NCBI GenBank assembly: GCA_963665665.1 | Contig: OY762428.1 | Span: forward strand, 1,600,001-1,664,000 | Length of the DNA: 64,000 bases | Origin: Candidatus Kapaibacterium sp. | GTDB lineage: Bacteria > Bacteroidota > Ignavibacteria > Kapaibacteriales > UBA2268 | Reading direction: 5' to 3' | Part shown: positions 7,241-30,370 of the stretch, piece after piece | Layout: every line of letters begins with the position of its first letter | Numbering within the stretch: the stretch's first letter is position 1 | Position numbers and translations under genes: made by a program | Notes under the pieces: model-generated | What the model was told of the DNA's origin: nothing | The model's input: the letters and a program-made list of their open reading frames with translations, nothing else | Databases searched by the model: none

Positions 7241-8002
7241 TTAATTTTTTATCAAATTGATTCTTTTTCTTATCATTCCGGATTTCTTTAACACTATAAT
7301 ATAAAATCCTTTATCAAGATTATTAATATTCAGATAAGAACTTTCTAATTCAACCAGGTCAGTATCAATTTTTCTGCCATTCAGGTCGAAAATATATAAA
7401 TCAACATCACTTATTTCATTTTCAAAAAATATCATATCATCCGCAATTACGGAAATATTCTCATCTATTACGTTCTTTCTATCAACGATACCTGTAGGTA
7501 CTTTATTATATTCTATTGAGATTTTAAATTTGTCGAGAAATTCATTCCCTACTTTAACCATTTTATTTTCTATCATATCAACTGTAAGAATACTACCGTC
7601 AATAGCGTCGCTTATTGTAGCATTTTTTACATAAGCCGGATCGAGATCCCATGATATTGTTATAGTATCAGCTCCGAATACAACACCAAGATAATAATCT
7701 ACTTTATATGTATCGTCATCAGGCAAAGAATCAACAGGAGCCCTAAAATCCTTATATGACAAAACGGTCGGGCTAATATAAAAAGCGCCCTGAAGCTGAC
7801 TTGGGGCAAAATTTGGAAATTCGAACTCGCCGTATACTGTATCTATTCCATCGGTAGCATCTGGCATTATTCCAAAGATACATTGCTCGAAATGATCATT
7901 ATTATTATTATCCAGAATTATCTTATTTGTTATTTCCTGGGATAAACCGAGCGACTGGCTAAGAACTATAAGCGCCGATATTGCAATTAATAATCTTTTC
8001 AT
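7241..8002 (-). CDS. Small T9SS cargo protein (ATDG-type domain + CTD)
   Basis: Signal peptide; FGIMPDATDGID domain; CTD IFDLNGRKI...LDKGFYII...INLIKN. Confidence 0.8.
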   Translation of the reverse strand: MKRLLIAISALIVLSQSLGLSQEITNKIILDNNNNDHFEQCIFGIMPDATDGIDTVYGEFEFPNFAPSQLQGAFYISPTVLSYKDFRAPVDSLPDDDTYKVDYYLGVVFGADTITISWDLDPAYVKNATISDAIDGSILTVDMIENKMVKVGNEFLDKFKISIEYNKVPTGIVDRKNVIDENISVIADDMIFFENEISDVDLYIFDLNGRKIDTDLVELESSYLNINNLDKGFYIIVLKKSGMIRKRINLIKN

Positions 8003-8065
8003 CTTCTGCTCCTTTTTAACATAAATAAATATAAGAAATTTTCCGGGAGTGGCGCTACTTTTAAT

Positions 8066-8097
8066 AAAAAACGGGCAACCACTAAGGTTGCCCGTTT
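8066..8097 (-). terminator. Intrinsic terminator after the 1047-aa T9SS gene
   Basis: ACGGGCAACC / GGTTGCCCGT stem with T-run on the minus strand. Confidence 0.85.
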
Positions 8098-8116
8098 AAA
8101 AATAAATCTTTTCAGA

Positions 8117-11100
8117 TTATTTTACAACATTGATTGTACGAACAGTTGCTTTACCATTAATGATCATCTTGGCAATGTACTGCCCTGATGTTAATGAAGC
8201 GGCATCGATCTGTACGTCTGTATATGTTCCTGCATTCCTGCTTGCATTATCGAGTAATTTTGCTACCTGGTTACCAAGTGCATCATAAAGAACGATAGTT
8301 ACATTTGCATTTTCGGGAACAGTATATTTAACAGTTGATTCTGAGCTAACCGGATTTGGATAGTTTACAAGAGCTGATTCAAGAGCATCTACTGTTTCGA
8401 TTTTAACAGAATTTGTTTTTGAGCTCGGTATAACTACAGTTCCGTTGCTGCCTTTTTCAATTGTACCATATATCTGGCCTGTTACAGGATCTGAGAATGT
8501 ATATTTTGCATCAGCATTGTGTACTGCAAATGATGCAGGATATTCAACTGCCTGAAGAAGAACTACTGATGAATTCTCTGTTGATAATTTACTGTTATTA
8601 TCAAACCTTACATCAAATAGATCTGCTGGAGGAAGAGGAGGAAGTACAAAACTGTTTGCATCAACATTCTGGTTTGAAAGATATAGAGAAGCTTCATTCT
8701 GTGAATTATCACGAAGAACAATAGCGTCTGACATTGCCATTACATCGTCTCTGTTTGATGCATAGATCTGTGATCCTGTTTTGATATTACTCATATCAAG
8801 GTTCAACCATGCACCTGCATCTACATACAGCCAGTAACCAAGTCCTGGTTCAAGTTCAGATACTTCTACATAACCACGGTTAGTTTTGTATCCATACACA
8901 CCAAGTTTCATTGATTCTGAAAGTGTTGGCCTGTTGTTATTATCAAATGCATCAAGGTCGATGTGATCAATATTAATCGGGATAGAAAGTGCACCAATTG
9001 TGTTCCATCCTTTGTAAAGCCTTACAGGATCGCCTGTAGCTTTAGAAATCTTAGAAATAAACACACCCTGGAAAGTAGTGTCAACTCTGTCTTCTGAATA
9101 TTTAACGAAGTAACCAACACCAGGCATTAATTCTTCTTCCTGCTGATAGATACTAAGTGTAAATTTAATCGGTACGTTCATTGCATTTGGATAGAATACA
9201 TTCCAGAATGAATTAGTAGGCCTTACTGGTAATGACAGAAGGTTCCAACCAGGATTAATTCTTGGTGTACCATCAGCATTTACGTAACGGATTACTTTTG
9301 GAAGTGTGTATTCAATCATAAATTCACTGTATTTAGGATCAGTGATAACATAAGACAGGCGGCCATTTGGCAGTGGAGTAGCTGAACGCATATTAACATT
9401 GAATTCCTCGCCGTTGCGTGCATCTCTCAGGAAGAGCTGTGCACCATCCGGGAAGTTCTTTGTATCCCATTCAATTGTGATAGGATAATTTTCAGCACCA
9501 CCAGCATTGAATTTCACCCAGTATGTAATTGACTGAAGTGTATCAAATGCACTTCTGATATCTCTTGAACCATATACAAGGTTGCCATTTTCGTCGCGAA
9601 CTGCAGTTCTTGGAAGCTCATCGTTAGGAGCCCAATCACCAAATCCGAAAGGTACCTGTGGCTGAATATCTGTATCTACAGGATAGAAACGTGCGCCGAA
9701 TCCCTGAAGATCATATTCATAAGCAAATTCACCAAATAGTTGATCAACACCGTCAGTAGCTCTGTGGCCTGTACCAAAGATAAGTTTACAAGAATCGCCT
9801 ACAGCACCGCGTGAGTTTCTTACTGTTAATTCGATACCTGGTTTTGAAGTAGTATTAAACCATTCTACAGGATTTCTGAAATATATAAATGTAACTTTAA
9901 TCCTTACGGGACTGTCAAGTGCATAGTCAGATCTGAAAGTGATGTAACCAGTATAAACACCGGCTTTTTCATCATCAGCCTGGATTTCATTAGGATCGCA
10001 CTGTACTTCTAAGTAAAGATCGCCTTCAGCTGTTGTAGGATCGCCATAAGGATCTCTTTCTTCACCAAGAATTGTATTGTCTAACCAGTCAATCCAACCG
10101 GATCTTGTTGGTGATGCAAAGTCAGCAGGATATTTATCAGCTGTGGAAAGCCTTCTTGCCTGAAGTTTCAACCATTTCTGATCTGTTTCTACTTCGATAT
10201 CAAGCAGCCTTGTTCTTTCAACGCCATTCATAACTCTAAGAAGCCTTGTTCCGAACAGAGGATCGAAAGAAGCGGAATCTATTGTAATCGGGTCAACGAT
10301 TTCCCATAGATTTTCTTCATCCTCAACTTTTTTGATAGCGGGAATTGAGCCAATACCTCTTTCAATTGAGAAATTGAATTCCGGAATAGCAGGTGTAATG
10401 CTCATATAAATTGAGCCTTCTTTTGTAGGTTCAATTTCACCGGCTGCATAGTCAAGGTTATTAATACCTGCAAGTCCTGTTATTTCAGTAGGTTCGTACT
10501 GTTCTGTGCCCGGAATACCTAATTTATAAAGATGTGCAAAAGGATTATCTTCTCTTACGTTAATATCATTATATTTTATTGTATCTGGTGCAAAGTGAAT
10601 TGATGGTTTTGCTACAGAACCCTGGCCGGGGTTATCTATAGACTGCATCACTTTGAAGCGTACATAAAGAAGTATCTGCCAGTCTTTTCTTCCAAGGTCA
10701 GTATTAGGAAGCGGACGTGTTGTGGAAGTACCTGTTATACGCATTGCACGGCCTCTCATCCTGTCCTGGAGAGCAGTTTCGTCAGAAAGATAAACCCTGT
10801 AACGGGAAGTATCTTTGAAGTCGTGCCAGGAAATATTAAAATGTTTTGAAAGTGGTTCCTGATCCATTTCTTCGTCCCTTGGTCCGAACTTCTGAACACC
10901 TACCGGCCTGATTGCCGATGAGTCATAAAGAAGTGTGAACTGGAAACTATAGATCGGGTCCGGAACAAATCTGTCATCGTCATATTTTGCCCACCTGTTT
11001 TCAATCCAAACAGGAACAAGAAATTCCCTGGGATGTTCGTATTTTTCTGATGTGGGAATCCAGATACGTCCGTCAGGATACCATTCTTCGTTATATCCGT

Positions 11101-11248
11101 CATCAGTACCTGTAAGAGTAAGATTGGGCACCGCAGGCTTATCAAAAGCAGCGAATGCATCCTGGCCTGTTGAAAATAAAAGGCCGATTACAAGCGCCAA
11201 GCCCATTAAGACTTTCATGCCCTGGTATTGTGATAAGAATCTCTTCAT
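8117..11248 (-). CDS. Large T9SS cargo protein: cohesin-like, BACON-like Ig, ATDG domain, GWN repeats, CTD
   Basis: ATG at 11248 (MKRFLSQ) preceded by GGAGGT; signal peptide; CTD NYPNPVSS...YDALGNQV...LTSGQYIAKM. Confidence 0.85.
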   Translation of the reverse strand: MKRFLSQYQGMKVLMGLALVIGLLFSTGQDAFAAFDKPAVPNLTLTGTDDGYNEEWYPDGRIWIPTSEKYEHPREFLVPVWIENRWAKYDDDRFVPDPIYSFQFTLLYDSSAIRPVGVQKFGPRDEEMDQEPLSKHFNISWHDFKDTSRYRVYLSDETALQDRMRGRAMRITGTSTTRPLPNTDLGRKDWQILLYVRFKVMQSIDNPGQGSVAKPSIHFAPDTIKYNDINVREDNPFAHLYKLGIPGTEQYEPTEITGLAGINNLDYAAGEIEPTKEGSIYMSITPAIPEFNFSIERGIGSIPAIKKVEDEENLWEIVDPITIDSASFDPLFGTRLLRVMNGVERTRLLDIEVETDQKWLKLQARRLSTADKYPADFASPTRSGWIDWLDNTILGEERDPYGDPTTAEGDLYLEVQCDPNEIQADDEKAGVYTGYITFRSDYALDSPVRIKVTFIYFRNPVEWFNTTSKPGIELTVRNSRGAVGDSCKLIFGTGHRATDGVDQLFGEFAYEYDLQGFGARFYPVDTDIQPQVPFGFGDWAPNDELPRTAVRDENGNLVYGSRDIRSAFDTLQSITYWVKFNAGGAENYPITIEWDTKNFPDGAQLFLRDARNGEEFNVNMRSATPLPNGRLSYVITDPKYSEFMIEYTLPKVIRYVNADGTPRINPGWNLLSLPVRPTNSFWNVFYPNAMNVPIKFTLSIYQQEEELMPGVGYFVKYSEDRVDTTFQGVFISKISKATGDPVRLYKGWNTIGALSIPINIDHIDLDAFDNNNRPTLSESMKLGVYGYKTNRGYVEVSELEPGLGYWLYVDAGAWLNLDMSNIKTGSQIYASNRDDVMAMSDAIVLRDNSQNEASLYLSNQNVDANSFVLPPLPPADLFDVRFDNNSKLSTENSSVVLLQAVEYPASFAVHNADAKYTFSDPVTGQIYGTIEKGSNGTVVIPSSKTNSVKIETVDALESALVNYPNPVSSESTVKYTVPENANVTIVLYDALGNQVAKLLDNASRNAGTYTDVQIDAASLTSGQYIAKMIINGKATVRTINVVK

Positions 11249-11282
11249 GAGAACCTCCAAAAATTAAAAAAAATATCAGTTA

Positions 11283-12491
11283 TTATTCTTTTATTAAAAC
11301 AATTCTTTTTTTCTCGTTATTTTCTGTTACAACAATTCCGAAGTATATTCCCGGTAATAATTCTGCAACATCAATTTCTATTCGGTTTTCAAATATATTG
11401 TCAATTTCTTTAATCTTATAACCCATCAAATCGTAAAAAGACGCAAATTTTATAAGATTTTTTTCATTTTTTATAATAAAACTATTTTTACCTGCACTGT
11501 ACCATGATTTAGTATCGCTTTTATTACTAATTTCAATTATATCATTACCTGTGGTATCTTTTTTTATTGATCTTAAATAAAGGTTTTCAGATGAATATCT
11601 CGTAACGCAAGAACAAAAACCTGTATTTATTGAATCAATTGTAATACCAGATAATAAACTGTCATTACTTTTTCTTTTAATATCAAATTCTAATATTGTC
11701 TGATCGCTGAAATCATTATTCTTTTGAAATCTGATCTTTTTTCCATCATCAATATCTTCAACAGACAAATTTGATATTAAATCATCTACAGTTTCAGTTT
11801 TTAAAATTTCAAAGTACGTTTTATCATAAACCAGGTTAAATTCTATCAAGTCGAGTCTTGCAATGTTTTCATCATATTGCATGTACAATTCGAACTTTTG
11901 AATCGAATCATTCCTGAAGAACAAAGAATCTGAGCTGAAACCGGCAGTTATTGCCCTGGTTTCTTTATCAACTTCCAATCCTTCGATTATCAATGTATCC
12001 TGTTTCTCTACTTCTATTTTGAATTCCTCGGTGAACTCAATATCCTCGAGATATAATCTTGTTGTATCCGGGCAATCCCCGAGAAATCTTCCGTACAAAA
12101 CAACCAAAGGTTTATTTCCGCTCGAAGGCGGAAATGAGAAATTGAAGGTTGTGGCATAGCCCTGTACTCTTCCTTCTTCAGAAATAAATGATACTTCCCT
12201 GGTTTCAAAGAACTCTGATAATGTATTTGTGTAGAGTGCTGTTATCCATTGTATTTTTTCCGGATTATAGTTTAAATAATACTGGAAACCATACAAGCTG
12301 TCGAATCTTTGCACTTCTCCGATACTCAGTGAAACATAAAACTCTTTTTTATCTGCCGAGCCGCAAACATCAATAATTTTTTGTTGTGTCAGTTCAGCTC
12401 TTACCGTTTCCTGAGATAATCCGGTCAGGCTGCTGCAAGCAAAGAGCAGCAGCCATATCCAGATTTTATATTTCAATGAACAGCTCATCAA
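11283..12491 (-). CDS. T9SS cargo protein with two tandem cohesin-like domains
   Basis: LYGFQYYLNYNPEKI and IEFNLVYDKTYFEI strands typical of cohesin folds; CTD YDLMGYKI...LLPGIYFGIV. Confidence 0.75.
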   Translation of the reverse strand: MMSCSLKYKIWIWLLLFACSSLTGLSQETVRAELTQQKIIDVCGSADKKEFYVSLSIGEVQRFDSLYGFQYYLNYNPEKIQWITALYTNTLSEFFETREVSFISEEGRVQGYATTFNFSFPPSSGNKPLVVLYGRFLGDCPDTTRLYLEDIEFTEEFKIEVEKQDTLIIEGLEVDKETRAITAGFSSDSLFFRNDSIQKFELYMQYDENIARLDLIEFNLVYDKTYFEILKTETVDDLISNLSVEDIDDGKKIRFQKNNDFSDQTILEFDIKRKSNDSLLSGITIDSINTGFCSCVTRYSSENLYLRSIKKDTTGNDIIEISNKSDTKSWYSAGKNSFIIKNEKNLIKFASFYDLMGYKIKEIDNIFENRIEIDVAELLPGIYFGIVVTENNEKKRIVLIKE

Positions 12492-14450
12492 TTACTTGTT
12501 GAGGATCATTTTCTTTGTAGCAGTGAAATCATCGCCTGTTAACCTGTAAACATATACACCGTTTGCAACAGCATTACCACTGTTGTCTACGCCATTCCAT
12601 GAGAATTTGTGTGTATCTGTAGAAAGGTTTCCGTTAACGAGAGTTTTTACAACATTACCAAACATGTCATAAATTTCAAGTTTGTAGCTTCCTGCATCTT
12701 TAATTGTTACAAAGATATCTGTGCTTGCTGTGAATGGGTTAGGATAGTTTTTGAAATTAAGACCAAAATCATTATCCTGTCCTTCAACATTTGTAAGAAG
12801 CGCAGAGAAACCATCGATATTGTTATCGTTGAATCTTGCATTTGTAACTTCTATCTGAGCATTTTCAGATTTTACTGTAACAAATAATACGGGTGTTGAT
12901 GTTTCAAATTCGCCTGTACCTGCAAATACTACAGTATTGCCTTCATGTGTTGTCTGAACATTACCGTTAACAGATACTATGTCAGCATTAAGGTCGAATT
13001 TACCTGCAAGCATACCATCAAGATAACCATTCAGGTTAACTGTCAGCATGTATTCGTTATCGCCAAGACCTTTAACTTCAGAAATATCGAAAGCAGTTGC
13101 TTCTTTTTCGTTGTTTGAGATCTTACCATATTGTTTTATCCAGTCATATATCCAGGGCAATTCAGGAACGCGGCCTGAAATATAATGCAGAATCCATGCT
13201 GCATCATATTCTGTTGCCTGGAAATAAACGCGGTTAATACTATTGATACCAACAGGAAGGTTATCTGCTACATTCATATCACGCCAGGGAATATCTTTCC
13301 TGATAATGAGTGTAGCTTCATATTCTTCACCCTCATCGTCGATGAGAGTAGTATCCACATAAGCATAGTAATAACGACCATTATGGTTAACGTCTGCGTG
13401 ATAAGCTTCTCTTCTGCGAACACTATCCAAAGGAATATTTGTAACAACGTGACGCATGATAATACGTGCATCGTTAACTGTTACAAAGCGGTTCTGAGGC
13501 ATACCATAATGTCTGTTACCATAAGCTTTAGAGAAATCAGCATCACCGTCGCCCCACCATTCGTCAATATTCAGACGTGTAAGTGCGCGGAAGAAGATTC
13601 TCTTGTCTGTACCGCCGGAAGGTGGCCAGAGGTTAGTTAGTGTAGTTTCAGTTCTTGCATACATCGGGTCGTAATCTTCATCATCCGGACCCATGAAATA
13701 AAGGCCGTTCAGGAAGTCGCCGCCAGTACCGTTAATACCTACTGAAGCATCTTTAGTAATAATTGTATTACCAGCATCCGGGTCGGGATTGCCACCAACA
13801 GGGCCATAACAGAATTCAATATTACCCTGATTTGAGAATTGGTCAGTAGATTTATAAATAACAACCTGGAAGTTTGCTACCGAAGATTTTACATGAACCA
13901 TATTACCTTCATCATCTTCCTGTTCGAAGTTAATGTTAAGGTCTTTCCATTGAACCACGAAGAAATCACCACCGTCGTAAGTAGAAATTTCTGACTCCAT
14001 AAATCCATCAAATACATCAGTTGCATTTCTGTAGTAGTGGTCTCCCCAGAATGGAGCAATTACATTACTCGGGAAAGAAGTTGCATTCTGGAAAAGAGCA
14101 GTAGGATCGTCAGGAGCTACGAAAGGAGGTGTAGTTCCCTGCCTTGTGAATGCAATGAAACCATTAATGTTTACCCATACCTGGTTGTAAACTTCACTAT
14201 TATATTCGAACTGGAACGGAAGAGGAATTGCCTGGTGATAATATCCGTTCCTGCGGTCTTCCCTGAAACTGGGCGGAAGCCCGAAGTCCTCAGAAGGCAG
14301 TACATCAGGATATTCGAGGAATTGGAAAGGAGCATTTTCCCTTACAATTACCGTATCGAATTCGCTGTATACCTGCGCTTCAGCTTGCTGTGACAGGAAT
14401 GTTACTCCTAAGATCACAATCCCTACAGCAAAGATTAAGAAACGTTTCAT
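12492..14450 (-). CDS. T9SS cargo protein: NIDO-like N-domain, split dockerin, degenerate cohesin-like domain, FlgD/CTD
   Basis: IPLPFQFEYNSEVYNQVWVNINGFIAF...IAPFWGD; GDAD...VTVNDARIIMRHVV...ADVNHNG...YDAAWILHYISG; CTD NYPNPFT...ANGVYVYRL. Confidence 0.82.
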   Translation of the reverse strand: MKRFLIFAVGIVILGVTFLSQQAEAQVYSEFDTVIVRENAPFQFLEYPDVLPSEDFGLPPSFREDRRNGYYHQAIPLPFQFEYNSEVYNQVWVNINGFIAFTRQGTTPPFVAPDDPTALFQNATSFPSNVIAPFWGDHYYRNATDVFDGFMESEISTYDGGDFFVVQWKDLNINFEQEDDEGNMVHVKSSVANFQVVIYKSTDQFSNQGNIEFCYGPVGGNPDPDAGNTIITKDASVGINGTGGDFLNGLYFMGPDDEDYDPMYARTETTLTNLWPPSGGTDKRIFFRALTRLNIDEWWGDGDADFSKAYGNRHYGMPQNRFVTVNDARIIMRHVVTNIPLDSVRRREAYHADVNHNGRYYYAYVDTTLIDDEGEEYEATLIIRKDIPWRDMNVADNLPVGINSINRVYFQATEYDAAWILHYISGRVPELPWIYDWIKQYGKISNNEKEATAFDISEVKGLGDNEYMLTVNLNGYLDGMLAGKFDLNADIVSVNGNVQTTHEGNTVVFAGTGEFETSTPVLFVTVKSENAQIEVTNARFNDNNIDGFSALLTNVEGQDNDFGLNFKNYPNPFTASTDIFVTIKDAGSYKLEIYDMFGNVVKTLVNGNLSTDTHKFSWNGVDNSGNAVANGVYVYRLTGDDFTATKKMILNK

Positions 14451-14498
14451 TTGTGAACTCCAATTATATTTAAAAATATTTATTTCCGATTTATAATT

Positions 14499-14520
14499 GG
14501 CAGGCCATTGAAGGCCTGCC
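14499..14520 (-). promoter_or_regulatory. Intergenic GC-rich hairpin without a U-tract on the coding strand (mRNA stabiliser or partial terminator)
   Basis: GGCAGGCC-ATTGAA-GGCCTGCC, followed by AATTATAA on the minus strand. Confidence 0.55.
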
Positions 14521-14537
14521 TATTTTTATCAGATATT

Positions 14538-17500
14538 TTACTTCACAATTACCAGAGGCATTGTTGAAGTAGTACCATTTGCTGTAAGTCTTACTACATA
14601 AGAACCGCTTGAGAGAGCTTTGCCATCAAGGTCGTTTGCTTTCCAAACAATGTTATGTGTTCCAGCTTCGTAATATGAGTCTGCAAGTGTTGCAACTTTA
14701 TTACCGAGAGCATCGAATACATCAAGAGCAATTTTGCCAGATCTTGGAATCTGGAATCCAACAGTTACATCGCCAGTGTTGCTGTACGGGTTCGGTGATA
14801 CCGAATTAACTTTGGCAACAGTTGGTAATCCAACCTGAGTTTCTACCGGTGTTGTCCAGTCATAGATAATCAGGAAGGCATCGATTTCATTCTGTTTGAT
14901 GCTCAATACTGTGTATTCACCATCTTCAGTAAGTTCAATATAAGAGGCGATATTAGGATCGTTATAGTTTGGATCTCTCATATCTACTCTGAATATATTA
15001 CCGTTTGACTGTGCATCTTTAAGATACCATGAACCACCAGAAGGATTAACCTCGTTATTGTCCATCGGAGGAATCTGAGATTTTTTCCATTTCAGTGTTA
15101 CAGGATATGCAGGTGATGTCTGACCATTTTCTCCACCAGCCTGGAATGATGCTCTGTATACATAAGTACCTTCCTGGCCAGGAGCCTGTGGGAATACGCT
15201 TATAAGTGTACCATTCCTTGTAGGAATTGTCCAGCGAGCGTCAAATACGTCAAGCGGAGGAAGTGGAGGAAGATCATACTCGCAATAGTTTGAATCAAGC
15301 ATACCAAGCGGGTTGCCATCATCAGCATCGCCAGTTGAAGCGTTACGTGCTGCAGTACCCCATGTCAATGTTTCCATTGCACCAAGGTGGTTTTCGATAA
15401 TAATATCGCAAAGGAAGTCTGCTTCTTCCATAAGTTTCAGCCTGAACGGAAGCTCTTTTTCAGCTCCGTCTTTGTCTGTTACTTTTATTATAATAGTTAC
15501 TTTACCGTCAGCATCTCTCGAAAGTGCTGATGGATCTGTAATTGTTACAGATACTTTTACAGTGTCAAGATCAAGCGGACCATTGATAGTTGTCGGATCG
15601 AGTGTTACTCCTGCTGAAGGTTCTACTACTGTAAGTGTAAGAACTTCATTTTCACCATCAACTCTGCGGAGAAGATCAAGATCGCTTACAAGCAATGTAT
15701 CGTTATAAACTCTGTCGTCAGCATTGAATTTTGCACTTTCAATACATTTAACGATAGGAGCCTGGTCAATATCAGGATCGTGGTTTGTTTTCAGTACTCT
15801 GAGAGGAATCTGCTTAACATAAGTCAAGTCATCTTCGTCTCGTACAAGTACAGTTACCAGTTCGTCCTGAGGAGCTACTTCGTTATCTGCCTTAAGCATC
15901 GGTTTTCCATAAAGAAGACCGCTTTCTTTATTTATCTTAAGCCAGTCAGGAGTTGTTTTCATATTTGAAACATCCCAAACGCCAGCTTCCGGGAAGCACG
16001 GATCTTTCTGAATTTCATCCTGCGGATAATCTTCATAGATCAATTCATATTCGTGCCATTGGCCGAAGTTAGGATCGTAAACTGAGATAGCTCTTGTTGT
16101 ATCATCAAGGCCAGGATTATAATCAATATCTTCCTCTGCGTCAGGAAGTGACTGAGTTATAATTTCAGGCTGAATATTGATAAATACAGGCATATCCATG
16201 TAGTTCACTCCACCATGACCGTCATTTACAACAACTGTAAATACTGTATCAGTGTTGAGTTTGTTATTAACCTGTTTTGAAGGAGTAAGAAGCTCAATTG
16301 CTTCATCTCTGTCAATACGAATGTCAAGTTTACCCCAAGTCTGGAACTGAGCGCCAAATGTATCTGATGCAGGATCGGTTACACCATCACCATATTCATG
16401 CAGATATTCATTAGCCATCCAAACAGGCCTTGTCTGAGTGATAGTTGTATCGTTTTCACGACCATCACCATCATTATCATAAATTGTGCTGTCGATAACA
16501 ACATCATCTTCGCCAGCGCGAACTGCAATGTTCATAAAGCCATAAGCTGTACGTCCGTAGCGGAAGTCCCAGCCACTTGCCCATGAATCTTCAAGCTCAT
16601 CATCTGTATTAAAGTCAACTTTAAAGCGAAGTTTATCTGTAAGGTTTGCCATTAATGTACCATCTTCGTCTGAACGACGGCAAGGATAAAGTGAAGGCAT
16701 ATATGTACCAACAACTTCTCTTGTTCCTGCCATATCAACTCTTCTTGTTACTTCTTCTTCTGATTCATCAGGACCAATGAAGCGAGGAGTTGAATCTACA
16801 ACAATAATACGGAATGCATAGTCGCCAGTATGGTAACCGTTCTGGCCAACATAGTCAATTGTATCCTGCTGCAGATAGCGTGCTTCCATATCCTGATATG
16901 CAGGAGCTGAAAGATAAGGCCTGAAGAGCTCGATAAATTTAGCAATATATTCATCGCTTGGCCTTAAGCTGTCCGGAAGAGCTTTAAGAGAATCAAGAGT
17001 TCTGTAATAAGGAGGATAGCTCATACCTTTAACGTTAATCCACTCGCCGCCAGGTACTACGAACGGGTTCATAGGCTGACCACGGAACAAGATGTAACCG
17101 TCTGCATCATCTCTTGGAAGCTGATATGAGTTTTCCCAATCTGTATTGTTTTCAGATGCTACTGTATCAACGAGAATCCAGTGTTCAAGTGCTGTATTCG
17201 GGTTGTACTGTCCGTGTCTCGGATCTGTAGGATCGTATGTCGGATGCCATTCATAAGTAAGGAATGAATACAATTCAGGATACATCTGTGATCTTGGATC
17301 ATAGTACTGATTTGTATCCATAGCTGTAATTGTAAGAATAGAATCACGTCCTGCAGCATCATCACCAATATTAGGATCATCAGGATCGCTGTAGAAACCT
17401 TCTTCAACAGGATAATACCTGTTTTCAGTAAGGAATATTGTATTAAGTAATGAAGTCATTACAAGTGTATCAAGCTGTTTGCCCGGAACTTCCGATGGAA

Positions 17501-20500
17501 CGATCTTTGTAACTGAAGCTGTATCGTCACGAAGTTTAAGAACGTTACCTGTAAATGTCGGAGGATCAACATTGCGAACAACCTTGAATGAAATACCATC
17601 GTCATAAGCCGGGATAACGCCTTCTCTCCAGAGAACTGTACGAGAGATCACTCTAACAACATCGCCGGTATCAACCGGAAGTGCTGTGAAACGTTCACCA
17701 GCGTAGAATGTTGCCTGGTTGTTATTATCAACTGGCATTGCAAAGTTACCGTTATCATCCCTGTTCGAGAAGAGATCGCTTACATTACCAAATGAGTAAT
17801 AAGGATTATCATAGCGTCTTCCTTCGAGAGTAGCTTCGTCTTCACTGTAAGGATCGTTAGCTAACTGACGGAGGAGATATTCGCCTGTACCAAGGTTAAT
17901 AAGGCCTTCAGCTGTACGGCGGATAAGAGAGTTAGGATTCCTGTTAGTAGAATCAGGAACAAGTTCAACTCTCGCACGGAATATTTCACGATAAGGAGCT
18001 TCATTGTGAACCTGGTTAAAGTTAACGCGAATGAAGTCACCAGTTGTTTCATTGATTACGAAGAATACTGATTCGTTAAGTGTTCTCGGGTCGAAGTTGG
18101 ACCTTTCAGCAACACCATCATAATCAACCATTGATTCAAGATACAGCGGATAACCAATCGGATGGATCATTTCGCCGTTTTTATTAGCGCGGAACTCATC
18201 CTGAAGCTGAGCAATAGCAGGGTATTTTAATGCGCCTGTGCTATCAATTTCTTCAGCTACGAAAGGATCGCGTGTATAACGTTTTACATATTTACCGTTT
18301 GAAGGCATAAGGGCATCTTCGAATCTTTTAACGATCGGAGGAATACCAACTGCAAAGTCTTCAATCGGGCTCATTCTGCGTTTTGAGTAATCAGCAGTTT
18401 TAATGTCTGTACCTTTGTCATAAATGTCGTAGATACGACCTGACTGAAGAACTGCATCAGGAATTGATCCTGCTTCAGGAGTATTTTCATTACCACTGAT
18501 GTTCTTCATAGGTATTGCTGTATAAGTATATTGGCCATTCTTTTCAAACGGACCCTGATCGCGGAGATCGCTGGATGAGTTGTATTTCAGCCAGAGATTG
18601 TTATTTCCGTCAGTGTCAACAAAGAATGTATGCTGAATAGCGCCATTATAACCAAAGCTGTTTTCAATTACGATGTCAACATTTGCTTCTGTACGGCCCC
18701 AATAGTTACCGCGAAGTGTATCTGTTCCGCCATAGCCAATACCGGTTGTTCCTGCAAGAACGCCTTTTGTATTAGGAGCATCAGGAAGCCTGATAAGGAA
18801 GCGGGCATCGTTATCATAAATTGAGTTAGCTGCTTCTGAGTAAATTGCATTCGGAAGCGGACCCTGAACTTCACCATAAATGATAGAGCCTGCAAGATCG
18901 CTGGATGCAAAGTTTGTTGTAATATCGTTTGTATTTTCATCTCTTACGATAGGACCGGTAATAGCATTTTGTTCCATACCGATTTCTGATTCTGCAATGT
19001 TTCCGGCAACAAGTGACCTGTTAAGGATAAGTTTAAGGTCAAAGTTGTCTGAGTAAATTGCAGCGCCGGAGAATGATTTATTGTCCTGCATTCTTACGCG
19101 GTTGAACCAAACTGAGTCAACACGTCCGATTCTGTTAACAGTTACACTGTCCAGAATATAAAGAGCACCACCAAGGCCTACACCATTTTCAGGAAGCATG
19201 ATTTCCTGGTGAAGGCGAACAACGTCAGTGTGGCTTTCGTCAACAGGCCTGAGGTCGTTCCATGTAGCGCCTGCGTCAGTTGTTGATTTAACAAGTCCTG
19301 CATCGCCAACTATATAACCATTGCTTGTTGTCGGGAAGAATACATCATATAAGTTATAATCTGTTTCTGCATCAAGTTCTGTCCATGTGTCGCCACCGTC
19401 TTCTGTTTTGTAAAGTGTACCGTAAGTACCTGTTACATAACCAGTGTTCTGTGAAGTGAAGAAACATGAATAAAGGTCATCATTAATACCAAGATCAATA
19501 ACTGACCATGTCTGGCCGCCGTTTTCTGTTTTTACAACAAGGCCGGCATTACCAGTGATATAACCAACGTTAGCATCAACGAATGCAATGTGGTTAAGTT
19601 TAACAATAACTGAAGGAATGAACTGTACATCCCATGTAGCGCCACCATCGTCAGTAACAAGGATAAGGCCTCTTTCGCCTACTGCATATCCCCTGTTAAC
19701 GCCTGTGAAGAATACACCAAGAAGGTCTGCATCTTCGGGGCGTGTATAAGTCCATGTAGCACCGCCATTGATTGTTTTAAGAATATAACCATCGTCACAT
19801 ACAGCATAACCTGTGTTTGTGCCGATGAAGAACAGGTCGTTTACAGCTTTCTGAATAGGAGTTGTAAGTTCTTCCCAGCTGCTTCCGCCGTTTTCTGTTT
19901 TCAGGATAACGCCCATTGCATCGGGCCTGCCTGTAACACCACCAACAGCGTATCCAACATCTGAACTTGTGAATACAACATCATTAAGTCTGTAATTTGT
20001 ACCTGAAGTCTGATATGTCCAGTTTACACCGCCGTTTGTAAGTTTGGCAATTTTTCCGCCATAACCAACAACGTAACCGGTATTGTTATCAAGCCAGGTT
20101 GTAGCATAGAAGTTGCTTGTTCCAACGAGTGTACCTTTACCAATCTGTGTTGTACCGGAACCGCTCTGAGAAGCAAGAATTTCGTCGTCAACTTCAATTA
20201 CGTTGCCGAGGAATCTTGTAAGCATTCTCTGGTCAGCAGGATAAGGAACTTCTTCGAATGTAAATACATCGTCGTTTGACATAAAGTCATAAGCTACGCC
20301 ATTCTCGTCATACATAACATGGTCAAGGTCTGACAAGAAGAAACGTTTTGTAGTTGCGAACGGGTTAACCATACATACGGCAGCACCGTTAGCATTATAA
20401 AGCATGTTTTCACGGAATTCAACGCCTTTAACAACGTTAAGGTCAGCATTGATAGTATAGATAGCAGCACCACCGCGAATTTCCGGTTTGTTAGCATCTA

Positions 20501-22670
20501 AAATACCTTCACCAACAACGTTTTCGTTAAATTCAGCTCTGATGATTTGAATCATTCTCTCGTGCGGAGGTTTGATTTCAATATCAGCAGGAATAGCAAC
20601 CATTAAAGCACCACCGGCATAACCGGCTGTATTTTCATGGAAACGAACCGGATATTTACCACCATAACCAATAAGGTTATCTGCAGCAACACCACCGGCA
20701 CCGTTTATCGACATATTTCTTTTTGTAAGTACAGCGCCACCCCAGCTAAGAGCTTCGTTTTCATCAAAGTAGATATTGAAGCCGTAATCGCGTGTCTGAA
20801 CGCCGGCATCACTACCACCAATGATCGGTGACATTTTAGGATCTGTATTACCATCAACATAGATAGCACCACCGGCGCCTGCTACGTTCTGGTAGAATTT
20901 TGTCTGGTTGTTAAGGTCTTCCCTTGTGGGGCCACCTCTTACCTGAAGACGGCCAAGAGTATTTTCTTCAAAGATAGCGCCACCCATTGAGTAGTAACCG
21001 CTATTCTGTCCTGAAGCATCGTCTTCAAGGAATTTAGTATATGTTTTGTTATGGCTGAATTCGCCGGCAACAATCATGGAAGTGTAACGGCCAAGATAAA
21101 TGGCACCACCGCGAGCACCTTTTGTGCTTGCAGCATCCTGATAGTTTTCAGCAAAGTTGCCAATGGCATGGAAAGTATCTTCATCATCAAATACTTCAAT
21201 GTTGCCATCAATTTTAATACTGTTGTTCAAACCGAATGCAACTTCGATCTGCCTGTCTTCTGCACCTTCACGGCCTGCTATATAAATAGCACCGCCATAA
21301 GCACAGTCACCATAAAGCTGAGGATAATCTGCCGGATTATCGTAATCCTGCTCAACTACCTGGAAACCACCCTGATTTGTAAATATAATGTTTACAAGCT
21401 CAACTTTATTCTGGTTAAATTTAAGATTACGGATACGGCCAAGATAAACAGCAAGCCTACCGTCGTCATAAGCCTGACGGTCGTAATCTGACATTGGTTC
21501 TTCCATACCCGGTTCATCGATCATATCGATTTTCAGTATGGGGTTATTTCTTACTATACATGAAATATTACCGTCTTTATCAGTAATATTCGGGTTTTTA
21601 TCAGCATCATAGTAGCCAACAGCCTGATCTGACATCGGGAAACCTGCGGGAGCCTGAAGAATATTCAGAGCACCACCGCGATAGCGTGCAGTATTATTTG
21701 AGAATTCACAACCAAGGAGCCAAAGCCTTGATGAGAATGTTGTAATAGCACCACCGGAACCGTTAGATGCCATCACCATCCTGCGATTAAGATCGCGAAC
21801 TTCATCCCAGGTATAACCGGGGAAATCAGCCTGTGAATAATAATCAGTACGATCTACCATAGTATCCTTGCGGAAACCTTCGAATGAACAGTTCCTGAAG
21901 AAAGCTGCCCTTGCACCAGGTAGAACAACGATATGTCCCCATTCCCTTGAAAAATCATTTGTCGGCTGGCCGATAAATGTAATTCTTTCAGGACCGAAAG
22001 GAACTGTACCGTAGTTTTCTCTTTGCCAGGGATTGATAGTCAGGTTGATATCATCATTAATATCTTTGTTCATTCTGGCTGCTTTGAACATAATAGCCTG
22101 TTCGAAGCTGATAACAGCTTCATTTTCATCAAGTGGATACATTACAGCGCCGGGATGTTCCAGATCGCGGATAGTTCTGTCGTCCAAATCAAGGATAACA
22201 TTATAAACGTAATCATATTTGTCTTCGTGAACTGTAATGTCTCTTGCAGTTTCCACACCAATAGTCGAAACAGTTCTGCTTGTTTCTGACTGGTATAGGA
22301 AATAGTCAAGGTCTGAATAGCCGGCCCAACCATAAGGGTTAGCCGATGAACCCGGAGCGGCAACTGGATCGATGTTGTCCGGATTTTGTGTGTAAGTTGC
22401 TTCGGCAAAACCGTCGGCGATTACTCTACCTCCGGCTGCAACAACGAGCTTACCTAACGGGTTGAATAAAACTTCCGTACCCGGTTCAATGATAAGCGTA
22501 CCTTTTACTGTGTATGCCCTGTCAATAACATAAGTTGAGTCTTTGACAAAGATACGGACATGCCCGGATTCAGTTTCCCCGGACACATACACCTGGTCGG
22601 CTTGCCCGGTATTATAACCGAAAATGGCAAGTATAAACGCCAGGATGCTCAAACGAAAAAATCGTTGCAT
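14538..22670 (-). CDS. Giant (~2710 aa) T9SS cargo: GGA(I/L) beta-helix with inserted YCF48/BNR propeller, Ig/cadherin-like domains, ATDG-type domain, CTD
   Basis: Likely ATG at 22670 (MQRFFRL) with GGAGGT RBS and signal peptide; many GGAI/FxxN repeats; 7 TxxGGxxW blades; CTD SPNPYS...LSSGSYVVRL. Confidence 0.88.
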   Translation of the reverse strand: MQRFFRLSILAFILAIFGYNTGQADQVYVSGETESGHVRIFVKDSTYVIDRAYTVKGTLIIEPGTEVLFNPLGKLVVAAGGRVIADGFAEATYTQNPDNIDPVAAPGSSANPYGWAGYSDLDYFLYQSETSRTVSTIGVETARDITVHEDKYDYVYNVILDLDDRTIRDLEHPGAVMYPLDENEAVISFEQAIMFKAARMNKDINDDINLTINPWQRENYGTVPFGPERITFIGQPTNDFSREWGHIVVLPGARAAFFRNCSFEGFRKDTMVDRTDYYSQADFPGYTWDEVRDLNRRMVMASNGSGGAITTFSSRLWLLGCEFSNNTARYRGGALNILQAPAGFPMSDQAVGYYDADKNPNITDKDGNISCIVRNNPILKIDMIDEPGMEEPMSDYDRQAYDDGRLAVYLGRIRNLKFNQNKVELVNIIFTNQGGFQVVEQDYDNPADYPQLYGDCAYGGAIYIAGREGAEDRQIEVAFGLNNSIKIDGNIEVFDDEDTFHAIGNFAENYQDAASTKGARGGAIYLGRYTSMIVAGEFSHNKTYTKFLEDDASGQNSGYYSMGGAIFEENTLGRLQVRGGPTREDLNNQTKFYQNVAGAGGAIYVDGNTDPKMSPIIGGSDAGVQTRDYGFNIYFDENEALSWGGAVLTKRNMSINGAGGVAADNLIGYGGKYPVRFHENTAGYAGGALMVAIPADIEIKPPHERMIQIIRAEFNENVVGEGILDANKPEIRGGAAIYTINADLNVVKGVEFRENMLYNANGAAVCMVNPFATTKRFFLSDLDHVMYDENGVAYDFMSNDDVFTFEEVPYPADQRMLTRFLGNVIEVDDEILASQSGSGTTQIGKGTLVGTSNFYATTWLDNNTGYVVGYGGKIAKLTNGGVNWTYQTSGTNYRLNDVVFTSSDVGYAVGGVTGRPDAMGVILKTENGGSSWEELTTPIQKAVNDLFFIGTNTGYAVCDDGYILKTINGGATWTYTRPEDADLLGVFFTGVNRGYAVGERGLILVTDDGGATWDVQFIPSVIVKLNHIAFVDANVGYITGNAGLVVKTENGGQTWSVIDLGINDDLYSCFFTSQNTGYVTGTYGTLYKTEDGGDTWTELDAETDYNLYDVFFPTTSNGYIVGDAGLVKSTTDAGATWNDLRPVDESHTDVVRLHQEIMLPENGVGLGGALYILDSVTVNRIGRVDSVWFNRVRMQDNKSFSGAAIYSDNFDLKLILNRSLVAGNIAESEIGMEQNAITGPIVRDENTNDITTNFASSDLAGSIIYGEVQGPLPNAIYSEAANSIYDNDARFLIRLPDAPNTKGVLAGTTGIGYGGTDTLRGNYWGRTEANVDIVIENSFGYNGAIQHTFFVDTDGNNNLWLKYNSSSDLRDQGPFEKNGQYTYTAIPMKNISGNENTPEAGSIPDAVLQSGRIYDIYDKGTDIKTADYSKRRMSPIEDFAVGIPPIVKRFEDALMPSNGKYVKRYTRDPFVAEEIDSTGALKYPAIAQLQDEFRANKNGEMIHPIGYPLYLESMVDYDGVAERSNFDPRTLNESVFFVINETTGDFIRVNFNQVHNEAPYREIFRARVELVPDSTNRNPNSLIRRTAEGLINLGTGEYLLRQLANDPYSEDEATLEGRRYDNPYYSFGNVSDLFSNRDDNGNFAMPVDNNNQATFYAGERFTALPVDTGDVVRVISRTVLWREGVIPAYDDGISFKVVRNVDPPTFTGNVLKLRDDTASVTKIVPSEVPGKQLDTLVMTSLLNTIFLTENRYYPVEEGFYSDPDDPNIGDDAAGRDSILTITAMDTNQYYDPRSQMYPELYSFLTYEWHPTYDPTDPRHGQYNPNTALEHWILVDTVASENNTDWENSYQLPRDDADGYILFRGQPMNPFVVPGGEWINVKGMSYPPYYRTLDSLKALPDSLRPSDEYIAKFIELFRPYLSAPAYQDMEARYLQQDTIDYVGQNGYHTGDYAFRIIVVDSTPRFIGPDESEEEVTRRVDMAGTREVVGTYMPSLYPCRRSDEDGTLMANLTDKLRFKVDFNTDDELEDSWASGWDFRYGRTAYGFMNIAVRAGEDDVVIDSTIYDNDGDGRENDTTITQTRPVWMANEYLHEYGDGVTDPASDTFGAQFQTWGKLDIRIDRDEAIELLTPSKQVNNKLNTDTVFTVVVNDGHGGVNYMDMPVFINIQPEIITQSLPDAEEDIDYNPGLDDTTRAISVYDPNFGQWHEYELIYEDYPQDEIQKDPCFPEAGVWDVSNMKTTPDWLKINKESGLLYGKPMLKADNEVAPQDELVTVLVRDEDDLTYVKQIPLRVLKTNHDPDIDQAPIVKCIESAKFNADDRVYNDTLLVSDLDLLRRVDGENEVLTLTVVEPSAGVTLDPTTINGPLDLDTVKVSVTITDPSALSRDADGKVTIIIKVTDKDGAEKELPFRLKLMEEADFLCDIIIENHLGAMETLTWGTAARNASTGDADDGNPLGMLDSNYCEYDLPPLPPLDVFDARWTIPTRNGTLISVFPQAPGQEGTYVYRASFQAGGENGQTSPAYPVTLKWKKSQIPPMDNNEVNPSGGSWYLKDAQSNGNIFRVDMRDPNYNDPNIASYIELTEDGEYTVLSIKQNEIDAFLIIYDWTTPVETQVGLPTVAKVNSVSPNPYSNTGDVTVGFQIPRSGKIALDVFDALGNKVATLADSYYEAGTHNIVWKANDLDGKALSSGSYVVRLTANGTTSTMPLVIVK

Positions 22671-22752
22671 AGTACCTCCAATGAATAAATACCTGTTATT
22701 TATCAAAAAATCTATTGTTTTCTCCATAAAAAAATTCATTTCAAATCTATGA

Positions 22753-23472
22753 TTATTCAATTATCGTGCCAATACGAACCAGTCCTGTCTTAGCTTTTCC
22801 GCTAAATTCGGATAAGCCTGACTCGTCAATAATTTTTCTATAAAGTTCTTCTGCTTTTTCTTTATCGCCGGCTTTTTCGTAATTCCTTCCGGCATAATAC
22901 TGATACCTTACTTTCGAAGAAGATTCGGATGCAGTATTTGCAGCATCTTCGTAATGGCCGGCAGCTTCTTTATAATTTTTATCAGCTTCAGCACAAACGC
23001 CAAGGCCGGCATGAGCGCCAATCAGAACCAATTTTGATTCCGAATCCATAGCGTTTTCAAAATATGATCTTGCTTCTGAATATTTGCCAAGTTCCACATA
23101 AGCATTTGCAGCATAAAGGGCTGCTGTTTTTCCCGGCTCCACACCTGAATATTTATTTGCAATGGCAGTTAATCCTAATATAGACTGTCCCCTTACCTTT
23201 TTATTAGGATCGCCGTTAATAGCCAGCTCATATTGTCCCTGATTATAATAATTGAGTATCCTGGAAAGTTCTGTGGTAGCTTCCTTCTGCTCGTCTGCCT
23301 GGGCACTTCTCATGTAAAACATACCAAGAACAATAATAATTACAGCCCCAAATCCAATAACAAAATGTTTCCAATATTTCTGTACGAACTCTAACGATTG
23401 TTCAGCGGAATTTTCTCCCGACTTTTCTCCATTTTCTTGTGTCATTTTTTTATTGTTTTCCATTTTTTTCAA
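22753..23472 (-). CDS. Membrane-anchored TPR protein (YfgM-like)
   Basis: One TM helix followed by TPR helices (ALYAANAYVELGKYSEARSYFE, YYAGRNYEKAGDKEKA). Confidence 0.85.
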   Translation of the reverse strand: MKKMENNKKMTQENGEKSGENSAEQSLEFVQKYWKHFVIGFGAVIIIVLGMFYMRSAQADEQKEATTELSRILNYYNQGQYELAINGDPNKKVRGQSILGLTAIANKYSGVEPGKTAALYAANAYVELGKYSEARSYFENAMDSESKLVLIGAHAGLGVCAEADKNYKEAAGHYEDAANTASESSSKVRYQYYAGRNYEKAGDKEKAEELYRKIIDESGLSEFSGKAKTGLVRIGTIIE

Positions 23473-28879: not shown

Positions 28880-30370
28880 ATGAAAACAGAAATAAAAATA
28901 TCCATATTGATCATCAGCTTTTTACTCCCGTCAATAATTTTCGGGCAGACATTTAAGCTTGAAAGGACAGATGTTGATTCCACGCGTTCATCGTTTGTTA
29001 CTGCAACGTACAATTTTGGATTTGACGTAATTGCCGAGGATATAGAGAATTGCAACGGAGCTGCTTTTGAATTACATTTTAACCAGACTGATTATGTTAA
29101 ATTCAACGGTTATGATCTTCGCGGTTTCGGCGAAGATCCCATTCCTATCGTATTCACAGAAGAAGACCCTGCAAATGACATTTCAAAGATTCATGTAGGT
29201 GTCCTGTCAGGTGAAACCCTGGAAGAAAACGGTTTTGATAATCCTAATATTATCCACCTTGAGTTTACAGTTGCACAATCTGCGCCAAACGAGGATGATT
29301 TAACTTTTACCTTTGTCAACCCTCAGGCAGTTGTCAGTTCAGACAGCGGCGTTGGAGAAGTTCTTGATATAGAAACCGAACCGGTAACCTATCAAATACA
29401 TAGCTTCATTGACGTTTGGCCCGGCGATGCTGATAATAATGATTCGGTGAATACAAAAGACATATCACAAATATTACTGTTTCTCGGGATGGGTAGCAAT
29501 ACAAAATTCATGCGCAGCTTTAAACGCCCCAATGCCAGTACGTTATGGACCGGCCAGAGAGTTCTTGGCTGGGACAGCCTGACAGTAACTTATGCAGACT
29601 GCGACGGCAACGGTGATGTTACTATGAGCGATGCACTGGTTGTTTACCTGAATTACGGAAAAGCACACGGCATTCCGATTATTCCTGTTTCGGAAGGTAA
29701 TATTACCGAGAATGCTGATATCATTTATGAACCGGTAGTTGAAAAAACCGAAAACACTGTTTCAATCCCCGTTCAAGTAGGTGAAACTACTTCTTATATT
29801 GCAGCAGGAGCAGTTTTCGATTATTCGTTGATAGGTAATAACTACAACTTGATCGGATTTGAAAGAGGAGATATTTTCAATCCAGGAGAAAGTTATTTCA
29901 CTTATAATATTAATCCTGCCAATAAAACTGCCAGCATTGCTTTTGGCTCATTGGACAAAAATATCACTAACAACTCGGCCGGAATAATTGCTTATGCACT
30001 GTTGGAACCAAACGGAACAACAAGTTCTAAGCCCGCATCCCCGATTATTACCGAACTTAAAGGTATTAACCGAAGCGGAATGGTATTCCCACTTATTGGA
30101 ATAACCGGTGTCGATAAATCATCTGCAAATTCAAAAGATTTTACAATCACTCATCTTGATGAAAATATACATTTGTCACTCACCAATGATCTTCCGGAAA
30201 CAAGTGAACTCGAAATATTTGATTATACAGGTAATAAAATTAGAAATTTCTATTTGCAACCGGAATTATCCGGCAATACAACAATTTATTGTCCTCTGCC
30301 TTCCGGCGTATATTTCGCAATTCTAAGATCTTCCAGAGAAATAAAAAGCTGCCAGTTCATATCCAACTGA
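28880..30370 (+). CDS. T9SS cargo: cohesin-like, dockerin, cohesin-like, CTD
   Basis: VWPGDADNNDSVNTKDISQ and YADCDGNGDVTMSDALVV EF-hand pair; flanking GAAFELHFN and AAGAVFDYS cohesin-like strands; CTD LPSGVYFAIL. Confidence 0.82.
   Translation: MKTEIKISILIISFLLPSIIFGQTFKLERTDVDSTRSSFVTATYNFGFDVIAEDIENCNGAAFELHFNQTDYVKFNGYDLRGFGEDPIPIVFTEEDPANDISKIHVGVLSGETLEENGFDNPNIIHLEFTVAQSAPNEDDLTFTFVNPQAVVSSDSGVGEVLDIETEPVTYQIHSFIDVWPGDADNNDSVNTKDISQILLFLGMGSNTKFMRSFKRPNASTLWTGQRVLGWDSLTVTYADCDGNGDVTMSDALVVYLNYGKAHGIPIIPVSEGNITENADIIYEPVVEKTENTVSIPVQVGETTSYIAAGAVFDYSLIGNNYNLIGFERGDIFNPGESYFTYNINPANKTASIAFGSLDKNITNNSAGIIAYALLEPNGTTSSKPASPIITELKGINRSGMVFPLIGITGVDKSSANSKDFTITHLDENIHLSLTNDLPETSELEIFDYTGNKIRNFYLQPELSGNTTIYCPLPSGVYFAILRSSREIKSCQFISN

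Follow-up and report, generated by a model that had tools for sequence, protein, structure and literature searches.

A conserved five-gene block of predicted type IX secretion cargo in Kapabacteria, with two modelled cohesin folds and a dockerin-like motif pair

The minus strand of a 64,000-nt window of contig OY762428.1 from Candidatus Kapaibacterium sp. carries five consecutive open reading frames (ORFs), here called A to E, of 2710, 652, 402, 1047 and 253 amino acids (aa). The window is the whole stretch that we analyzed, and all coordinates are positions in it. An initial annotation had described these genes as a co-oriented cluster of surface proteins, free of recognized enzymes, that would co-assemble through cohesin-dockerin contacts. 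The five co-oriented genes are real, with a fourth protein of 1047 aa. The gaps A/B, B/C, C/D and D/E measure 87, 0, 22 and 114 bases, so that B and C abut with no base in between. Domain architectures and positions are given in Table 1.

Two cohesin-like domains had been proposed in the 402-aa protein C, and they are borne out at the level of the fold. From an alignment of 24 orthologues, built from genome loci (a word-indexed homologue search returned just 7 proteins), AlphaFold2 (AF2) gave a confident model of C (predicted local distance difference test, pLDDT, 87.8; predicted template modelling score, pTM, 0.65), and the top Foldseek match of this model was 3l8q, a type II cohesin dyad (E-value 2.2e-12). 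In a second fold search, independent of Foldseek and run over 48,161 chains, cohesins filled the top 13 rows. Each of the two domains is modelled as a nine-stranded jelly-roll beta-sandwich of ~140 residues that can be superposed on solved cohesins. Judging from the model and the fold matches, C is thus built as cohesin-cohesin-CTD, where CTD denotes the C-terminal domain of type IX secretion system (T9SS) cargo, and its predicted structure contains two true cohesin folds. Pfam Cohesin (PF00963, gathering score 24.1 bits) did not match C at E-value ≤0.1, and in the scan of the genome it found nothing at the locus even at E-value ≤10; weak matches occurred in 4 of 24 C orthologues (best E-value 0.0012), below the gathering score. 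Searches of PDB sequences, with single proteins as well as with profiles, matched only CTD/FlgD and Ycf48, and no cohesin or dockerin. Since true cohesin folds here escape Pfam, surveys made with sequence models undercount cohesins in the Bacteroidota group.

Compared with solved cohesins (PDB 4uyq, 2vn5, 1aoh and the 3l8q dyad; 2vo8/2jh2 from C. perfringens; 2xdh from Archaeoglobus), C shares 5–17% sequence identity. It differs from cellulosomal and non-cellulosomal cohesins in its host, a Gram-negative lineage of the Bacteroidota group, and in its predicted anchoring by a T9SS CTD instead of SLH domains or sortase. Unlike known cohesin systems, the Kapabacteria locus has no dockerin-bearing enzymes, and dockerin binding by C is putative. 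Four cysteines of C (C43, C140, C293 and C295) are invariant or nearly so in the 24 orthologues; one pair lies in the first cohesin and a C-x-C stands near the end of the second, and these residues may form disulfides or a metal site.

A further cohesin-like domain, with large insertions, had been assigned to the 1047-aa protein D. Profiles lend this some weak evidence, but a cohesin is not confirmed there. Residues 77-142 of D aligned with residues 48-96 of C over 49 columns (hhalign 42.8%, E-value 2.5e-4), and in a table of sub-domain comparisons the N-terminal region of D against the first cohesin of C (Coh1) was the best cross pair with a value of 26.5, compared with 22.1 for Coh1 against the second cohesin (Coh2) and 8–19 for unrelated pairs. 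Pfam Cohesin was weak in 2 of 18 D orthologues (best E-value 0.061). These profile comparisons are consistent with a cohesin-like core at the N-terminus of D and weakly suggest one.

The supposed partner is a module in the middle of B, which the initial annotation had read as a dockerin-like EF-hand pair. Its first segment runs W299-G-D301-G-D303-x-D/N305, followed by an insertion of 17 aa, V323-T324-x-x-D327 and a predicted helix (residues 325-337); the second runs D353-V-N355-H-N357-G358-R359, followed by an insertion of at least 39 aa, in which a beta-hairpin (359-387) lies, then E414-Y415-D416-A417 and a predicted helix (414-424). In 20 orthologues, both segments show little or no variation at EF-hand positions 1, 3, 5 and 12. 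When 80 further loci were searched with a regular expression for these motifs, the first segment was recovered in 78 and the full pair in 62; the pattern was drawn from the same B family, so that conservation is all these counts demonstrate. Type I dockerins (PF00404) consist of two 22-residue F-hand segments within ~60–70 aa. Like them, B has two segments joined by a short linker, in each of which the loop starts as D-x-[DN]-x-[DNST](-G), position 12 is acidic and a predicted helix follows. Unlike them, the B module spans ~135 aa, its loops are not contiguous 12-residue calcium loops, the first being split by 17 aa and the second by the beta-hairpin insertion of at least 39 aa, and it sits in mid-protein and not at the end of an enzyme. 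Dockerin_1 matched 2 of 20 B orthologue fragments, weakly (E-value at least 0.036). An AF2 model of B residues 285-568 reached pLDDT 75.7 and pTM 0.72, with 54 of 284 residues under pLDDT 50; fold searches with this fragment were filled by matches to its beta-sandwich (model residues 162-272), and the dockerin-like part was barely sampled. In an Atlas search of B residues 292-445, the cluster at rank 2 (0.83) had Dockerin_1 in 15% of its members. The B module is best described as two dockerin-like motifs with split loops, and not as a demonstrated dockerin: the motifs are present and conserved, but Pfam, profiles and fold searches did not confirm them as a dockerin. At the N-terminus of B, NIDO matched weakly in 2 of 20 orthologues (best E-value 2.8e-4).

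The gene order, as had been predicted, is conserved in relatives. Within the reach of the contigs, all 20 genome loci examined showed the order E1 dehydrogenase gene, TPR gene, A to E and GT2 gene. Among 80 loci of the Kapabacteria type, drawn from species genomes of which some are shared with the first 20 loci, A and B were each found in 80, C and D in 75, the TPR gene in 68, E in 55 and GT2 in 52; A to D were all present in 72, and 75 were colinear, the five others being short contigs or CTD cross-matches. A single-sequence search found C in 32 of 41 related genomes. Five of the nine genomes in which it was missed were re-checked; B was present in four, and in all four a C profile recovered a gene directly downstream of B. 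Of 200 candidate stretches taken from species genomes, 194 contained a relative of B. When 251 genomes were sampled across the phylum, 19 gave a match, and the strong matches lay only in the same order (12 of 13, besides the genome under study) and, within the class, in one further genome. By sequence comparison, the five genes form a single-copy block kept throughout the Kapabacteria-type order.

All five proteins had been read as T9SS cargo, and each indeed ends in a type A CTD. Their N-termini show, by eye, a basic n-region, a hydrophobic core and an A-x-A-like site, as in Sec signal peptides. TIGR04183, the T9SS type A sorting domain, exceeded its cut-off in every protein but C, where it fell short with 17.2 bits; the C-terminal sorting domain of type A cargo (TIGR04183/PF18962) is present, and Por_Secre_tail was found in 13 of 14 A orthologues. 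The genome also encodes PorU (NF033707, 853 bits) and SprA (TIGR04189, 957 bits). Given the CTDs together with these two components, we infer on good grounds that T9SS exports A to E and that they stay attached to the outer membrane on its outer face.

Protein A and the remaining modules add no enzyme to this picture: the absence of a recognized catalytic domain, stated in the initial annotation, holds within Pfam and NCBIfam, whose scans gave no catalytic family in A to E or their orthologues. Pfam found Chlam_PMP in 14 of 14 A orthologues, PSII_BNR in 10 and He_PIG in 9. The Chlamydia-PMP-type repeats are of the beta-helix, adhesin-like kind, and the propeller profile matched solved Ycf48 in the PDB (E-value 4.8e-27); the PSII_BNR propeller went undetected in 4 of the 14 orthologues. 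Mean column identity of A over these 14 is 49%. Conservation is very strong over ~residues 1160-2100, a stretch that holds many invariant D, E, R and H and matches no named family. An unrecognized catalytic or binding domain is possible in this stretch, and an enzyme would be placed within residues ~1400-2100.

An unnamed domain common to A, D and E had also been noticed, and hhalign recovered it at 96.7–99.6% (Table 1). A profile of 30 copies matched 2260 representative proteins at E-value ≤0.001 and 1191 at E-value ≤1e-10. These proteins range from 250 to 2900 aa and have many architectures, often with 2–5 copies. Por_Secre_tail was present in 16 of 17 sampled proteins (taken from 150 listed), in which the partners were FN3, Ig, cadherin, LamG, C25 peptidase and one dockerin. 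An Atlas search of the domain returned unnamed clusters only (0.88). Judged by these profiles, the shared domain is real, unnamed in Pfam and a general module of T9SS cargo, which in A, D and E lies beside the CTD.

Table 1. Features of the window, with strand and supporting evidence; a hyphen in the strand column denotes the minus strand
Feature	Position	Strand	Content or evidence
Gene A, 2710 aa	14538..22670 (ORF 14538-22760)	-	Likely ATG start at 22670; signal peptide, Chlamydia-PMP-type repeats, Ycf48/BNR-like beta-propeller, unnamed conserved region, He_PIG Ig domains, shared domain, T9SS CTD
Ycf48-like beta-propeller of A, ~residues 1040-1380	approx 18531..19553	-	Pfam PSII_BNR, E-value 2.6e-30
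Shared domain of A, just ahead of CTD	14811..15413	-	hhalign, E253 alignment vs A C-terminus: 98.5%, E-value 3e-15
Putative G+C-rich palindromic hairpin between A and B	14499..14520	. (+ strand in scan listing)	Consensus scan; minus-strand function putative
Gene B, 652 aa	12492..14450	-	Signal peptide, NIDO-like N-terminal domain, dockerin-like split F-hand pair, small beta-sandwich, T9SS CTD
Dockerin-like module of B, residues 296-432	13155..13565	-	Conserved columns, AF2 secondary structure
Small beta-sandwich of B, residues 446-556	12783..13115	-	Generic; cohesins among fold matches without standing out
Gene C, 402 aa	11283..12491	-	Signal peptide, cohesin 1, cohesin 2, T9SS CTD
Predicted cohesin-fold domain 1 of C, residues 28-174	11970..12410	-	
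Predicted cohesin-fold domain 2 of C, residues 175-311	11559..11969	-	
T9SS CTD of C, residues 325-402	11286..11519	-	
Gene D, 1047 aa	8117..11260	-	Signal peptide, possible cohesin-like N-terminal region, unnamed regions, shared domain, second partial shared domain, T9SS CTD
N-terminal region of D, residues 40-300, possible cohesin-like core ~residues 77-142	10361..11143	-	Sequence profiles
Shared domain of D, residues 472-664	9269..9847	-	hhalign vs E 22-176: 96.7%, E-value 3.5e-10
Second, shorter shared-domain copy and CTD of D, residues 867-1047	8120..8662	-	hhalign vs A C-terminus: 99.6%, E-value 3.4e-24, CTD included in match
Terminator-like hairpin between D and E	8069..8097	-	12 pairs, 7 G-C, then T run; consensus scan only
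Gene E, 253 aa	7241..8002	-	Signal peptide, shared domain (residues 22-176), T9SS CTD
Shared domain of E, residues 22-176	7475-7939	-	hhalign matches to A and D
TPR_21 (YfgM-like) membrane-anchored protein gene	22753..23472	-	Directly upstream of A; kept upstream in 68/80 loci
496-aa ORF with signal peptide	28880-30370	+	Weak Dockerin_1 (182-255, E-value 0.035), Cohesin (288-388, E-value 0.013) and Por_Secre_tail (429-486, E-value 0.06)

Given this block of conserved surface proteins, the reading that we prefer as a whole is that A to E form one fixed surface structure, a coat, sheath or adhesin complex made of T9SS cargo, to which we assign an even chance of being right. In studied Bacteroidota, PorU removes the CTD of T9SS cargo and tethers the protein. 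By analogy, A to E would leave the cytoplasm by Sec export, pass through T9SS and be trimmed and tethered by PorU, after which one surface structure would assemble. The giant protein A, with its PMP repeats and propeller, would be the exposed part, and the cohesin-fold modules of C, with perhaps one in D, would provide lateral contacts by gripping the dockerin-like module of B with its altered calcium loops. Formation of a surface complex is the likelier step, and the contact of B with C or D through cohesin and dockerin is the least supported; this specific contact carries about half of the chance given to the whole. In its boldest form, the block would encode a lineage-defining, enzyme-free nanostructure held together by a new class of split-loop dockerins that plug into the sequence-hidden cohesins of the next genes, an ancient and non-cellulosomal structural rivet on T9SS cargo; we regard this as a doubtful proposition.

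Several results weigh against a structure joined in this way. Pfam Dockerin_1 (PF00404, gathering score 22.9 bits) gave no match to B at E-value ≤10 in this genome, and at E-value ≤0.01 no B orthologue was among its matches in 61 genomes of the order. When residues 296-432 of B were compared by hhalign with 28 Pfam-positive Kapabacterial dockerin segments, only pieces of 11–18 columns aligned, at 2–10% probability, and the best value of the Atlas search of B (0.84) fell in the chance range. Both calcium-type loops have low pLDDT in the AF2 model, and their interruptions, of 17 aa and at least 39 aa, cast doubt on calcium coordination of the canonical kind. Every protein carries its own CTD, so that no dockerin is needed for surface attachment, and the shared cohesin fold of C is no proof of a shared function. 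The unnamed domain of A, D and E, which had been taken as a sign of co-assembly, loses that meaning, since assembly of the three cannot be argued from a module so general to T9SS cargo. Terminator-like hairpins behind A and D point to more than one transcript. Over 63 loci, the evolutionary rate of the dockerin-like module covaried unspecifically, with a partial r of 0.42 with A, 0.35 with the B N-terminus, 0.27 with Coh1 and -0.12 with Coh2, and rate covariation does not discriminate among the readings. The cellulosome-like logic of the initial annotation stands only in part: C has true cohesin folds by its model, but there is no enzyme and all five proteins have their own CTD.

Many of these points fit another arrangement, one with no cohesin-dockerin contact at all. 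The five gene products would be co-regulated coat proteins or surface adhesins, each anchored independently; the cohesin folds would be rigid beta-sandwich spacers, or their ligand would not be a dockerin; and the D-rich loops of B would be calcium sites of the ordinary, protein-stabilizing type. The separate CTDs, the failure of Pfam, profiles and folds to confirm a dockerin, the adhesin-type PMP repeats and Ig domains of A, the generic nature of the shared domain and the unspecific covariation all agree with it. However, such strict gene order and adjacency would be unusual if the adhesins were merely co-regulated, single copy number together with high conservation, as in A, points to a fixed structure, and the D/N loop and helix pattern of B matches dockerin segments piece by piece: all three hhalign pieces pair a B loop with a dockerin loop and a helix with a helix. 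We consider this arrangement unlikely, although a serious contender. A contact confined to B itself, in which the dockerin-like module clasps the protein's own C-terminal beta-sandwich and bridges no proteins, would agree with the adjacency of module and sandwich in one chain, with the weak cohesin-like matches of that sandwich and with a pTM of 0.72 reached by the B fragment in spite of its many low-pLDDT residues; we give it little credence.

The cohesins of C (and D) might instead receive canonical dockerins encoded elsewhere, and not B, for example on proteins of ~2000 aa or on the 496-aa protein of the window, arranged as cohesin-dockerin-cohesin-CTD. The genome has Dockerin_1 at three places outside the locus, one of them over the cut-off, and matches occur in 38 of the 61 genomes scanned across the order, in proteins of two recurring sizes (~2000 aa and 450–530 aa); the 496-aa ORF adds weak matches to Dockerin_1, Cohesin and a CTD. 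Nevertheless, the proteins with canonical dockerins carry cohesin-like modules of their own and show no linkage to the locus. Moreover, in family f2, Dockerin_1 at E-value ≤0.01 was found in 0 of 9 genomes, while B was present in 6 of 7 and C in 2 of 2. Since this family keeps B and C without a Pfam dockerin, the B module is the only dockerin-like candidate for the C cohesins there, and this pattern is the best indirect argument for the B module as their partner, if they have one. Supply of dockerins from elsewhere appears quite improbable.

If A to E assemble into one surface structure, its closest counterparts are known from other lineages. For Cloacimonadota (Ca. Stygibacter), a cellulosome-like system with a T9SS-CTD cohesin scaffoldin has been inferred, in which Pfam recognizes both cohesins and dockerins, and which includes carbohydrate-binding modules as well as a chitinase, an amylase and peptidases that bear dockerin tags (PMC8542988). 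The Kapabacteria locus differs in having neither Pfam-recognized cohesins or dockerins nor carbohydrate-binding modules nor tagged enzymes, and in being a fixed five-gene block. Cohesin-dockerin logic on T9SS cargo is thus not new, having been proposed for Cloacimonadota (PMC8542988). Our literature search, with supplements outside its range, returned no publication that combines Kapabacteria with cohesin. The general cohesin-dockerin idea reportedly has an earlier source in work by Peer et al. from 2009. Another counterpart is the surface layer (S-layer) of Tannerella forsythia, whose glycoproteins TfsA and TfsB depend on T9SS (PMC4175972). As in our block, these are non-enzymatic CTD proteins of adjacent genes, and they jointly form one surface layer (PMC4175972); the locus described here differs in encoding five proteins instead of two, and in its predicted cohesins, which TfsA/TfsB are not known to have. 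By analogy, the TfsA/TfsB S-layer would be a functional counterpart, and an S-layer lattice in Kapabacteria is hypothetical.

Two other known systems were considered and rejected. A cellulosome proper, with dockerin-tagged catalytic subunits docked on a multi-cohesin scaffoldin, does not fit because Pfam and NCBIfam recognize no catalytic family in the five proteins or their orthologues. SprB-type gliding adhesin operons are marked by a PorP/SprF-like gene and a CTD that is not of type A; no PorP/SprF-like gene was seen in the block, and its CTDs are of type A.

Kapabacteria are widespread and almost entirely uncultured, and this block is among their most constant non-housekeeping features. 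Should the proteins assemble, cohesin-dockerin contacts would serve as joints of a purely structural kind on the surface of a Gram-negative bacterium, and the block would offer a defined set of parts for cryo-electron tomography and surface proteomics.

Around the block, the TPR_21 protein encoded upstream of A may be a periplasmic helper for this giant protein or may merely be linked to it; the E1 dehydrogenase gene lies upstream of the locus, and genes for GT2 and GT9 glycosyltransferases lie downstream. A scan for sigma-70 promoters was at shuffle level (68 found against 57.8 ± 7.6), Bacteroidota-type promoters being outside its consensus. The motif D-[ST]-[AILVMT], described as a Bacteroidota O-glycosylation motif in PMC8550257, is in excess over shuffles in C (8 copies, z 5.5) and in A (21 copies, z 3.0), and not in B or D; one of the C copies, D64-S65-L, is a conserved part of the cohesin core, and the excess may accordingly be partly structural.

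The dockerins and cohesins outside the block that Pfam does recognize in Kapabacteria belong to proteins of the two sizes mentioned above. On contig 1, outside the window, two ORFs of ~2040–2110 aa carry Dockerin_1 matches of 18.6 and 26.7 bits (~2445385-2445906 and 2462006-2462155), one of them also with a Cohesin match, and proteins of ~2000 aa bear the best dockerin matches across the order. The N-terminal part of the 496-aa ORF is cohesin-like by eye, and ORFs of 450–530 aa with the same type of dockerin, marked by a long linker insertion, recur in many Kapabacteria, several of them over the Pfam cut-off.

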